Assembly (NCBI GenBank): GCA_963816145.1
Contig: CAWFJP010000031.1
Coordinates: 352,001-416,000 of the forward strand
Direction of reading: 5' to 3'
From: an uncultured delta proteobacterium
GTDB lineage: Bacteria > Desulfobacterota > Binatia > UBA9968
Length of the DNA stretch: 64,000 bases
Within the stretch, counting starts at the first letter, position 1. Each line of letters starts with the position of its first letter. Made by a program: the position numbers and the translations under genes. This document shows positions 28,492 through 33,322 of the stretch, piece after piece. The notes under the pieces are model-generated. The model did not search any database, was not told the DNA's origin, and worked only from the letters and a program-made list of their open reading frames with translations.

Positions 28492-28812
28492 AGCAGGTCG
28501 CCTTTCCCTGAAAAATGATTTGGTTCATTTGAGCTTGCCATCATCCTACGACGCCACTTCGCGGCCGGCGCATTGCGCCGGCCTCATCCAAGCGGGATGC
28601 TCGCCCGCTTTGGAAACACCGGTTAAAGGTTCCATGCTCATATCAGCATGTTCCACGACAAAGTTCCGGCAAAGTTCGGGCCAAACTAACTAACGGGGAC
28701 CGATCATTTTAGACCGAAAGATCATTGGCAGAATGGGAGGGATGAAGGTAAATCGAACGGAAGGACAACGAAAGCGGGCCTGGCTGGCGCAAGTCTTTCG
28801 AATGCAAATAAT

Positions 28813-28847
28813 AAAAAGGGCCTTCGGACTGACCGGAAGCCCTTTTT
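28813..28847. terminator. Rho-independent terminator, bidirectional-looking
   Basis: aaaaagggccttc...gaagcccttttt. Confidence 0.8.
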
Positions 28848-29112
28848 GACCGGAGCGTTCGTACGCTCTAAGTTCTTTCAAAATTTTTAATTCGGCGGCG
28901 AAAGAACTCAACAGGTTGCCGAAATCGGCCTTGGTATTGTCTGCTCGTGTTTAGCCTTGCTATGTACTCGCCTCAGCGAGCCTGTAACCTTTCGGGGTTT
29001 TGCGTGAAGGCGTAACAGCTAGCAATTCGAACCCTGAATCCGCTCTTCCGCAGCGCAATTCTACTGTTTTTGATTCGGTGGAGTTCCCTCATTCATACGG
29101 TGCACCTCCTGT
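28813..29112 (-). ncRNA. Candidate sigma-54-dependent small RNA / sORF transcript
   Basis: Sigma-54 motif at 29124-29138, AGGAGG at 29105-29110, 11-codon ORF at 29061-29096, five hairpins, terminator; no long ORF. Confidence 0.55.
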
Positions 29113-29123
29113 ACACCGCTTGA

Positions 29124-29138
29124 GCAAAGGCGATGCCA
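29124..29138 (-). promoter_or_regulatory. Sigma-54 -24/-12 promoter
   Basis: Minus strand reads TGGCAT-CGCCT-TTGC(T). Confidence 0.75.
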
Positions 29139-29424
29139 AGCGCCCCCGCGATCAATTGCTGGTACTTTCAAGGCTTTGCAGTGAGATCGGTCTGCTCGAC
29201 CATATCATGGGTCGGAATTTTGTCTGTGGGTTTTCCACGAGTTGGGAATTCTCGCGTGCTCGATTTGATCGGAATGATGGCTGCGCAAAAGTTTTCGGGT
29301 CCTAAAGTTGGGCGACTGACCTATCCGGGGAAAGGGACGATGTTGTTTAGCCACGGCGGTTGGCAGGGACAAAACTCTTCTCGACGCCTCGCCGTGCAAG
29401 TGTCCGGAATGCACCCGTACTGCC

Positions 29425-31261: not shown

Positions 31262-33322
31262 ATGAGTTTATCTCAATCGAATTCTCCTGCCGGTGCGCCA
31301 ACGGATGACGATCCTTACCTGTGGCTGGAAGACGTCGCCGGCGATCGCGCGCTCGCCTGGGTGCGTGATCAGAACGCTGCGAGCGTAAGCGAGCTTGAAG
31401 GCTCAGCTGGGTTCGCCAGCTTGTGCACGCGTCTGCTGGCGATCTATGAATCCGACGAGCGTATTCCGAATGTCACCAAGCATGGCACGTACTACTATAA
31501 TTTCTGGCGGGACGAAAAACAGATCCGTGGCGTGTGGCGGCGGACGAGCTTGGAGGAATATCGCAAGGCCGATCCCGCTTGGGAGATCGTCCTCGATCTC
31601 GATCAACTTGCCGGCGTAGAAAAGGAGAACTGGGTCTGGAAGGGCGCCGATGTGTTGCGGCCAAGCCATGACCGGGCGCTGCTTTTTCTATCCCGGGGCG
31701 GCGCTGATGCTGCGGTGACACGCGAGTTCGATTTGGGCAAAAAAGAGTTCGTGGCGCACGGGTTCACTCTCCCGGAGGCGAAAAGCCGGGTGGCTTGGCG
31801 CCATCGCGATGCCATCTACATCGGCAGCGATTTCGGTCCGGGATCGCTCACGAATTCCGGTTATCCGCGGGTTGTTAAAGAATGGCCGCGTGGCACGCCG
31901 GTGGGCGCTGCTAAAACCGTTTTCGAAGGCAAGTCTGAGGATGTCAGTGTCTCTGCTTCGGTGGTGCATGACCATGGGCGTATTTATGAATTCATTTCCC
32001 GCGGCCTGACATTTTTCACCAGTGAAATTCGGTTTCGCCGCGGTGAACAATGGGTGAAGATTGACAAGCCGGCCGACGCGCGGGTCGAGACGTTCACTGA
32101 TCAAATTTTAGTGCGGCTGCGCTCGGACTGGAGCGTCGGCGGGAAAACCTACCGGGCAGGATCACTGCTTGGTACCGATTTTGAGGGTTATTTGCTTGGC
32201 GAGCGGGAGTTCGCCGTCCTCTTCGAGCCAAGCGAGCGCCGGGCGCTGGCGAGCACCAGCGGAACTAAGAACTTCTTGATTCTCAACGAACTGGATAACG
32301 TGCGCAGCAAAGCGTACGCGCTCAAGCTCAATGCTGGGCAATGGCTTCGCAGTCAAGTGGCAACGCCCGCTTTCGGTGCAGTGCGCGTGCGCGGTGTCGA
32401 TGCCGATGCATCAGACGATTACTTTATGACCGTCAACGACTTCTTGACTCCGTCAACTCTGTTTCTCGGCACGGTCGGCACGGAAGCGCAGGAAAAGTTG
32501 AAAGGATCGCCGGAATTTTTCAACACGGAAGGGTTGGACATCAGCCAGCATGAAGCGGTCTCGAAAGACGGCATTAAGATTCCCTACTTTCAAGTGAGCC
32601 GTAAAAGCGTAGCGACAAATGGCACAAATCCCACATTGCTTTACGGCTATGGCGGCTTCAACGTGTCTCAGTTGCCGTTCTACAGCGGCACTCTCGGCGT
32701 GGCTTGGCTTGAGCGCGGCGGTGTCTATGTGCTGGCGAACATTCGCGGTGGCGGTGAGTTCGGTCCCGACTGGCACTATGCTGCGCGCAAGGAAAACCGC
32801 CAGCGGGCCTACGATGATTTCATCGCCGTCGCCGAGGATTTGATCGCGCGCAATGTGACGTCGCCGCAGCATCTCGGCATCCAGGGCGGTTCCAACGGTG
32901 GCTTGCTGGTCGGCGTCGCGCTGACCCAGCGGCCTGATTTATTCAAGGCGGTAGTCTGTCAGGTGCCGCTGCTCGATATGCGCCGCTATAACAAATTGTT
33001 GGCCGGTGCCAGTTGGGTGGATGAGTACGGAGATCCGGACAAGCCGGAGGAGTGGGCTTACATCGAAAAGTATTCCCCCTATCACAATGTCTTTGACGAG
33101 AAAAAATATCCGCGGGTGCTGTTTACGACGTCAACGCGCGACGACCGGGTGCATCCCGGCCACGCGCGCAAAATGTTCGCCAAGATGAAGGCGCAGGGGC
33201 ATGACGTGCTTTACTACGAGAATATCGAAGGCGGCCATGGCGGCGCGGCGGATAACCGACAACTGGCTTACATGTCGGCGCTGACCCATGCGTTTCTAGT
33301 CAAAGAGTTGTTCGCTGAGTGA
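31262..33322 (+). CDS. Prolyl oligopeptidase (S9A)
   Basis: DPYLWLED, YGYGGF, NIRGGGEFG, GGSNGG, DDRVHP, EGGHG. Confidence 0.96.
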   Translation: MSLSQSNSPAGAPTDDDPYLWLEDVAGDRALAWVRDQNAASVSELEGSAGFASLCTRLLAIYESDERIPNVTKHGTYYYNFWRDEKQIRGVWRRTSLEEYRKADPAWEIVLDLDQLAGVEKENWVWKGADVLRPSHDRALLFLSRGGADAAVTREFDLGKKEFVAHGFTLPEAKSRVAWRHRDAIYIGSDFGPGSLTNSGYPRVVKEWPRGTPVGAAKTVFEGKSEDVSVSASVVHDHGRIYEFISRGLTFFTSEIRFRRGEQWVKIDKPADARVETFTDQILVRLRSDWSVGGKTYRAGSLLGTDFEGYLLGEREFAVLFEPSERRALASTSGTKNFLILNELDNVRSKAYALKLNAGQWLRSQVATPAFGAVRVRGVDADASDDYFMTVNDFLTPSTLFLGTVGTEAQEKLKGSPEFFNTEGLDISQHEAVSKDGIKIPYFQVSRKSVATNGTNPTLLYGYGGFNVSQLPFYSGTLGVAWLERGGVYVLANIRGGGEFGPDWHYAARKENRQRAYDDFIAVAEDLIARNVTSPQHLGIQGGSNGGLLVGVALTQRPDLFKAVVCQVPLLDMRRYNKLLAGASWVDEYGDPDKPEEWAYIEKYSPYHNVFDEKKYPRVLFTTSTRDDRVHPGHARKMFAKMKAQGHDVLYYENIEGGHGGAADNRQLAYMSALTHAFLVKELFAE

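Follow-up and report, generated by a model that had tools for sequence, protein, structure and literature searches.

The window analysed here, a 64,000-nucleotide stretch of DNA from an uncultured member of the Binatia, holds between fhs (PF01268) and a polysaccharide deacetylase gene (PF01522) a gap whose minus strand carries an RNA gene of ~300 bases that is real and conserved, and that represents an RNA family apparently undescribed and outside the Rfam catalogue. The predicted transcript (28813..29112, minus strand; start placed from the −12 box) had been proposed in an initial annotation to be a structured RNA that stands by itself, is driven by sigma-54 and contains a micro-ORF. Every element listed there is present on the minus strand where it had been placed, and the proposal is supported by the conservation of the unit, its compensatory changes, its presence in RNA libraries and the lack of an Rfam match; none of the contrary outcomes named beforehand (no transcript, no conservation of promoter or hairpins in relatives, or an ordinary longer ORF) came about. 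Rfam gave no gathering-level match in the window (the best inside the transcript, at E 1.6, was to an unrelated family) or in 27 other loci, including sets of 11 and 15 homolog loci, and the openly readable literature on Binatota RNAs, Geobacter sRNAs and the peptide words held no description, although the supplements of motif surveys could hold one.

The sigma-54 −24/−12 promoter (29124..29138, minus strand) forms invariant columns in the homolog alignments, and rpoN is encoded in the host genome. Its motif occurs 46 times in this genome versus 9, 14 and 16 times in three shuffles, and 10–18 times at other spacer lengths, the count peaking at the 5-nt spacer. Roughly 110 to 75 nt upstream of the −24 box lies an enhancer, or activator site, of the form TTCC-N8-GGAA-N-TTCC (29214..29249, minus strand), which recurs as TTCC-N8-RGAA-N-TTYC at a fixed distance in 39 of 41 sigma-54-type homologs; the two palindrome-like words first noticed in this region are present (29238-29226 and 29253-29244) and overlap the conserved enhancer, but are not identical to it. 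The strict form has a single other site in the genome (C30:267955-268356, L234), likewise ahead of a sigma-54 motif and there followed by an unannotated hydrophobic protein of 81 residues whose tail is rich in His. This small protein, which has no Pfam match, was assigned no atlas family and has Binatota hypothetical proteins as its nearest atlas clusters (0.87, a lead only), probably belongs to the same activator's regulon; a looser enhancer match occurs at C29:108207. At its other end the RNA closes with an intrinsic terminator (28813..28847, minus strand), whose hairpin is found in 37 of 40 sigma-54-type and 44 of 50 sigma-70-type loci tested, and at which a simple terminator scanner made no call on the RNA's strand. 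Beyond the RNA, a second sigma-54-like promoter (28668..28683, minus strand; present in 7 of 10 loci) would serve the downstream deacetylase gene, and between the two lies a short REP- or MITE-like hairpin repeat (28554-28617, minus strand) with copies on contigs C3, C4, C8, C17 and C18.

BLAST recovered the element from 8 of 30 same-genus genomes. A core pattern search found 11 genomic and 39 metagenomic stretches. The promoter was present at 46 loci, of which 39 were non-redundant once seven near-duplicates were removed, and a first covariance model added three divergent sigma-54-type members from two other genera, for a total of 42. (L030, L036 and L060 were dropped as chance pattern matches and L033 and L051 as cut by contig ends; L055 was left out of later counts, and L142 comes without upstream DNA.) Three of the close homologs are in records titled Candidatus Binatia, others in records labelled Deltaproteobacteria, Syntrophobacter, Acidiferrales or Chloroflexota. 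An ORF-pattern search brought in copies of the same layout behind sigma-70-type promoters, their core sequence diverged (matches in families f3, f8, f13 and f17, two of them read and nine judged by the match line, were treated as chance). With a core-only covariance model of 32 sequences the family was found, mostly as sigma-70-driven paralogs, in at least 52 of 90 family genomes and at least 18 of 23 genera, the 52 being a floor because 45 candidates per genome were scored; 34 further loci found with this model all carry a Shine–Dalgarno (SD) sequence, an ATG and Pro-Pro (34/34), though the ORF lies outside the model. The host genome has three copies, namely the window copy and sigma-70 paralogs on C4 and C2. 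The sigma-54 control originally proposed thus stands for the window's subfamily, which is one placed under a sigma-54 activator, but not for most members, including the two paralogs here, which have sigma-70-type promoters.

Several copies have features of their own. The paralogs in this genome (C4:405100-405970, L185; C2:152960-153800, L186), whose ORFs start MMNGAPPD and MQDGNPPN respectively, lie like L103 and L104 near cytidylate-kinase-like genes; L104 is truncated after hairpin B, lacks a terminator and sits directly upstream of such a gene, where it was possibly recruited as a 5′ leader. A short version in another family of the class (L090, genome G279) keeps the ORF, MEDVTPPG, and the rod base and is missing the apical core. 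In genome G024 (L008:1650-1920 and L072:1-140) a ~270-nt element breaks up the core; its ends are inverted, an 8-bp target duplication accompanies it, and L024 has the intact allele. Carriage by mobile DNA was considered and set aside: viral contigs gave 0 core matches, all four phage matches to the ORF pattern were in gene-dense phage DNA lacking the unit's promoter or terminator, and one Geobacterales unit (see below) had 0 plasmid matches.

The SD sequence AGGAGGTG (29103..29110, minus strand) is an 8-nt match to this genome's 16S tail, such matches running from 4 to 11 nt across all groups, and it stands 7 nt from the start codon in 40 of 42 sigma-54-type homologs. The micro-ORF MNEGTPPNQKQ-stop (29061..29096, minus strand) has a homologous ORF in 42 of 42; in this non-redundant set promoter, SD and ORF all recur. 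Starts are ATG in 40, CTG in one and TTG in one, and length ranges from 8 to 41 codons (8–51 across the family). What stays constant is Met-x-acidic-x-x-Pro-Pro, with acidic residues at positions 3–4 and constraint confined to the first eight codons, no tail being conserved. An alternative 39-codon frame (29092-28973) suggested at first is not conserved, its ATG being found in 9 of 41 homologs.

The two prolines, codons 6–7 (29076..29081, minus strand), are the predicted pause site. On trees of 90 homologs based on the part of the RNA that follows the ORF (40 plus 50 rows; L003, L008, L055, L090, L154 and short loci omitted), these codons took 30 synonymous steps versus 1 replacement step, and the ORF is therefore under coding selection of the kind expected of a dual-function sRNA. 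Pro-Pro occurs in 42 of 42 sigma-54-type ORFs and in 50 of 51 sigma-70-type ORFs (the exception reads Ser-Pro), a count that is circular for the ~11 of the 51 found via the ORF pattern. The residue that follows is Gly, Asp or Asn in 33 of 42 and 44 of 51 respectively, as against 17% after Pro-Pro in this genome's long ORFs, whereas the residue before varies (T, A, I, N, S, E). In the available part of an E. coli study (PMC4140641), PPD and PPN stand solely among EF-P-dependent pausing motifs, and the accessible portions of the work on MgtL describe early acidic residues and prolines that cause ribosomes to pause or drop off (PMC11282234, PMC12856214). An internal SD-like GAGG in codons 3–4 (29085..29090, minus strand; ~8 nt before the second Pro codon), found in 39 of 42 sigma-54-type, 20 of 51 sigma-70-type and 6 of 13 Geobacterales units, would help pausing in the sigma-54 type. 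Use of Pro codons in the Binatia is skewed, CCA coming first in 30 of 42 versus 12% genome-wide, so a constraint at the RNA level also acts; a hairpin sequestering the SD was considered as the reason for the Pro codons, but while 4–5 bp are possible in Binatia, the degenerate codons of Geobacterales would be left unexplained.

A shorter unit with the same micro-ORF occurs in a group that we call Geobacterales, since a ribosomal protein encoded nearby has its named relatives in Trichlorobacter, Geobacter and Desulfuromonadales. These units measure 145–170 nt from the SD, end in a terminator, have neither rod nor core, and in 12 of 13 show no helix at the fixed-spacing site described below. The ORF pattern was found in 1 of 401 genomes of the phylum, in 5 of 61 relatives of that genome and in 13 of 201 genomes of its class, with 0 matches for reversed-pattern controls (among the rows of this search, two, L188 and L196, fall within a coding gene, and a third, L194, is a doubtful case). 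A search with the promoter motif alone, which is not circular for the ORF, gave 31 matches in 24 of 121 genomes compared with 3 in controls. Thirty loci were read: SD, ATG and Pro-Pro are present together in 18 (12 of them new), a further three form complete units that start with ATC and have a single Pro, one is without an SD and eight are chance. None of 13 Geobacterales loci inspected by eye precedes an obvious rimP. The third position of the second Pro codon is fully degenerate (1.9 bits). Because helix and rod are lacking, the link to the Binatia RNA is one of ORF and layout, and the likeness could be convergent. Loci L204, L205, L215 and L233 comprise ATC-start copies (three with a single Pro) and one tandem micro-ORF pair, and the Geobacterales promoter holds a palindrome, AACAG-A-CTGTT, that is a possible operator.

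We consider the tiny ORF likely to be there to pause a ribosome before folded RNA and not for its protein. As to the micropeptide first envisaged, the ORF is selected, but selection falls on the Pro-Pro pair and adjoining residues and not on an 11-residue product. It could still be argued that the peptide is the product, its first eight residues serving as a short linear motif that binds a protein while the fold stabilizes the message or has a second job, as in a dual-function RNA; selection on Pro-Pro at the amino-acid level is consistent with this, as is the near invariance of the motif in Geobacterales, where little RNA structure follows. A prolyl oligopeptidase gene (31262-33322, plus strand) also lies one gene away from the RNA gene, and directly adjoins it in a few close relatives (L003, L010, L025, L026, L027), a notable neighbour for a Pro-Pro peptide that is nonetheless probably a matter of local synteny. 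We hold a peptide product to be improbable, given lengths of 8–51 codons with no conserved tail, a variable residue before Pro-Pro, weak CTG, TTG and ATC starts and the lack of a modifying or partner gene common to all subfamilies; it would also leave unexplained the fixed nucleotide spacing between ORF and helix that is seen in the sigma-70 paralogs.

The predicted 303-nt RNA folds more stably than expected (z = −2.54; 2 of 100 shuffles equally good). The consensus fold is a long irregular rod with a junction of two small hairpins at the tip, followed by an A-rich linker, a small hairpin and the terminator. The 5′ strand of the rod (29037..29058, minus strand) may also form a local hairpin, its register being ambiguous in the window copy, and the 3′ strand is predicted from the consensus fold at approximately 28888..28914 (minus strand). 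The conserved apical core (28943..29023, minus strand) consists of two stacked helices closing the three-way junction with hairpins A (28986..28999, minus strand) and B (28967..28980, minus strand). Hairpin A, C-GRAA-G here and C-UGAA-G in the sigma-70 paralogs, is the weakest helix with 68% of cells paired, and hairpin B has two-sided changes in 5 of 5 pairs. The small hairpin just before the terminator (28853..28869, minus strand) is conserved in position across subfamilies. In an alignment of 32 sequences, 84% of the core's cells are paired, compared with 76% in shuffled alignments (0 of 500 as good) and ~40% in slid controls, and 16 of 21 pairs show two-sided changes, compensatory evidence that is to be read with the structure having been drawn from the same sequences, some of which were chosen by a pattern fixing certain paired bases. 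All hairpins of the initial annotation can be drawn in the sequence, but those at 28918-28929 and 28871-28908 are not conserved, the consensus pairing this region with the 5′ half as the rod. Between subfamilies the sequence of the core diverges and its shape is kept.

In 48 of 51 sigma-70 paralogs the first strand of the rod starts at an offset of 13 nt from the first base of the second Pro codon, corresponding to P-site +14. This distance is held across five hypervariable linker positions, also in four copies where the stop codon comes earlier and in three with Pro-Pro displaced by one codon. The ribosome's mRNA entrance is given as +11 to +14 in the accessible part of PMC8246090. In 43 of 44 copies the partner of this strand is the rod's far end; a switch at the rod base between a local hairpin and the long-range helix was considered, and both partners exist (30 and 26 of 51), but the distal form dominates. 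Counting against a ruler-like geometry, the window's own sigma-54 type has no fixed spacing, with first distal pairing at offsets 9–49 among 39 copies; its local helix starts at offset 17. Separately, many non-sigma-54 copies have in their 5′ leaders a hairpin with a self-complementary GCGC(GC) loop (L076, L105, L106, L137, L138, L175, L179, L182), as do Geobacterales units (e.g. L189), and some of all these leaders also carry an anti-SD CCUCC; the loops resemble kissing-loop dimerization signals.

Parts of the query were found in 20 sequencing runs, 18 of them recorded as RNA, and we examined seven of the 18, from seven studies, together with one control of unrecorded type. The predicted RNA is present in these libraries: near-identical contigs of 112–220 nt with 0–3 differences occur in 7 of 7 metatranscriptome studies, all within 28824-29101 and hence inside the predicted transcript, and three end at 29098-29101. 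Promoter, enhancer and downstream spacer, 60% of the query, had no contig cover in the seven RNA runs; the flanking genes gave short partial matches continuing into unrelated sequence, and missing cover there does not prove silence. In the control run (X20), cover extended over 30 of 30 bins and past the terminator, and the predicted 5′ end was not bridged. As contigs carry no strand, ends or level, they establish the RNA's presence and give hints of its boundaries.

Detection of the RNA in every metatranscriptome study examined would also suit a sink, that is, an RNA made in quantity under stress that holds paused 70S ribosomes or titrates EF-P, ABC-F proteins or Pro-tRNA, its fold bracing or docking on the stalled ribosome with no other target. 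The parts common to Binatia and Geobacterales are only an SD, a start and acidic-Thr-Pro-Pro in a free-standing transcript, and the helix sits at the ribosome's entry channel, both of which fit such a role. However, contigs cannot rank expression, a covarying 200-nt fold with an apical junction exceeds what a sink would need, and in the available part of the rreB study (PMC5711450) overproduction of that tight ribosome binder left growth unchanged, for which its authors cite ribosome excess; we therefore think a sink unlikely.

Returning to the pause, we propose that a ribosome loads at the 5′ end of the RNA and halts at acidic-x-Pro-Pro-(Gly/Asp/Asn), aided by the internal SD-like sequence in the sigma-54 type or by the helix at the mRNA entrance in the sigma-70 type; translation and pausing at Pro-Pro are, from comparative evidence, probable. 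While paused, the ribosome would shield the 5′ end from RNase J and keep the fold intact, much as stalled ribosomes act as 5′ roadblocks in the accessible account of PMC3997798. Release by EF-P or an ABC-F factor would let it move on and unwind the base of the rod, and the level or shape of the RNA would then serve as a readout of elongation stress. The host genome encodes EF-P, three ABC-F proteins and RNase J, although with EF-P present the pause at a single Pro-Pro may be brief. The effector is likely to be the apical core, which would bind a protein in trans; we suppose this because the shape of the core is conserved more than its sequence. Taken as a whole, this chain, in which a stand-alone RNA pauses a ribosome and so couples its own stability or fold to EF-P-dependent elongation, is plausible from sequence comparison, and we would put it a little short of an even chance. 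A wider and more tentative extension, which we think rather doubtful, is that of a Desulfobacterota-wide class of RNA genes acting as a ribosome-read ruler, where a programmed Pro-Pro stall holds the 70S ribosome at the foot of a folded domain, the two making up a regulated ribosome–RNA complex that stores ribosomes or relays EF-P and ABC-F status in trans, with one paralog placed on a sigma-54 stress activator.

The conserved core, the presence of RapZ in the genome and the combination of sigma-54 and sigma-70 paralogs, reminiscent of GlmY/GlmZ, might instead suggest that the RNA is a conventional sRNA acting in trans, or a protein decoy, of the GlmY, CrcZ or CsrB kind, and that its ORF is incidental. 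We regard this as very unlikely: neither Hfq nor CsrA was found in a genome that is 99.5% complete, Rfam offers no match, conservation is highest in the ORF, where selection acts at the codon level, and the core diverges in sequence between subfamilies while its shape stays. The same absences count against an Hfq-dependent sRNA of the CrcZ/Qrr type and a CsrA sponge of the CsrB/RsmZ type. SRP RNA, RNase P RNA and tmRNA were each found elsewhere in the genome, and 6S RNA was also set aside, the RNA gene not lying between zapA and ygfA and RF00013 having no match genome-wide. A ~340-nt gap after zapA and before ygfA- and rny-like genes (C31:87620-87960; L116:1765-2105), presumably the usual 6S site, has no Rfam match and, as RF00013 is matched nowhere in the genome, may hold a divergent 6S RNA.

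Control in cis, with the unit serving as an MgtL-type attenuator of the gene downstream, has in its favour the acidic and proline-containing leader (similar to MgtL in the available text of PMC11282234), the deacetylase gene that follows most sigma-54-type loci and the terminator-less paralog L104 that abuts a gene. Yet in constrained equilibrium folding, the only kind of calculation made, the pairing probability of the terminator stays at 0.95–0.97 whichever stretch the ribosome covers. Moreover, 10 of 18 sigma-70 and 8 of 13 Geobacterales loci are followed by a convergent gene (by a longest-ORF heuristic). With the terminator thus unresponsive, neighbours that vary and are often convergent, and a promoter motif belonging to the deacetylase gene itself, attenuation in cis seems extremely unlikely.

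To our knowledge, proline-pause peptides described so far act as leaders and control the gene that comes next. In this family the proline-pause signal is in a transcript with no gene behind it, present in up to three paralogs per genome and under two sigma factors; if pausing is its function, it would offer a route from elongation stress to a trans-acting RNA signal or a ribosome store. The unit is a variant of the little-understood stand-alone micro-ORF RNAs, and provides a concrete test of the purpose of such mRNAs as rreB. Gene callers and Rfam do not see the family, in hosts where no Hfq or CsrA was found, and its Geobacterales version leads to an order that has members in culture and amenable to genetics.

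Known systems share some of these features. CrcZ and Qrr are sigma-54-dependent, free-standing structured sRNAs with enhancer and terminator, and we know of no such sRNA with a selected Pro-Pro ORF. SgrS/SgrT, RNAIII/hld and SR1/SR1P likewise combine in one transcript a conserved RNA part and a small ORF, whose fixed-length peptides act as products, whereas in the unit only ~8 codons are constrained. Pxr and GlmY also pair a sigma-54 promoter and upstream enhancer with a free-standing structured RNA and a terminator, but Pxr, in the accessible part of its description, is a 108-nt triple stem-loop after nla19 (PMC5568312), from which the unit differs. Promoter and enhancer of this kind are found in the window's subfamily only, there is no Rfam match, and the unit belongs to none of the CrcZ, GlmY, Qrr and Pxr families that had been named as possible kin. 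In the ermC leader and STAB-SD, as far as the available text of PMC3997798 describes them, a stalled or tightly bound 5′ ribosome protects downstream RNA from RNase J; these guard protein-coding mRNAs in Firmicutes, while the unit would guard a non-coding fold.

The closest parallels are two. The rreB/rreR RNAs of Alphaproteobacteria are, in the portions of PMC5711450 available, stand-alone small mRNAs with a strong SD and a micro-ORF, in which ribosome engagement changes RNA stability; they have a 16–17-nt SD, a GTG start and a fixed peptide of 14 or 18 residues. The unit is likewise a stand-alone transcript with a micro-ORF, but it lacks complementarity of 16–17 nt, a GTG start and a fixed length, having instead an 8-nt SD match, mostly ATG starts, variable length and a selected Pro-Pro ahead of a 200-nt fold. 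MgtL, the mgtA leader, shares with it early acidic residues and prolines, with pausing or drop-off changing RNA folding, and is, in the accessible parts of PMC11282234 and PMC12856214, a 5′ leader that governs Rho termination of a gene transcribed with it. The unit, in contrast, has its own terminator and often a convergent gene, with neither a co-transcribed gene downstream nor intrinsic termination switched by ribosome position in silico. It works most like a hybrid of rreB and MgtL, yet is a member of neither.
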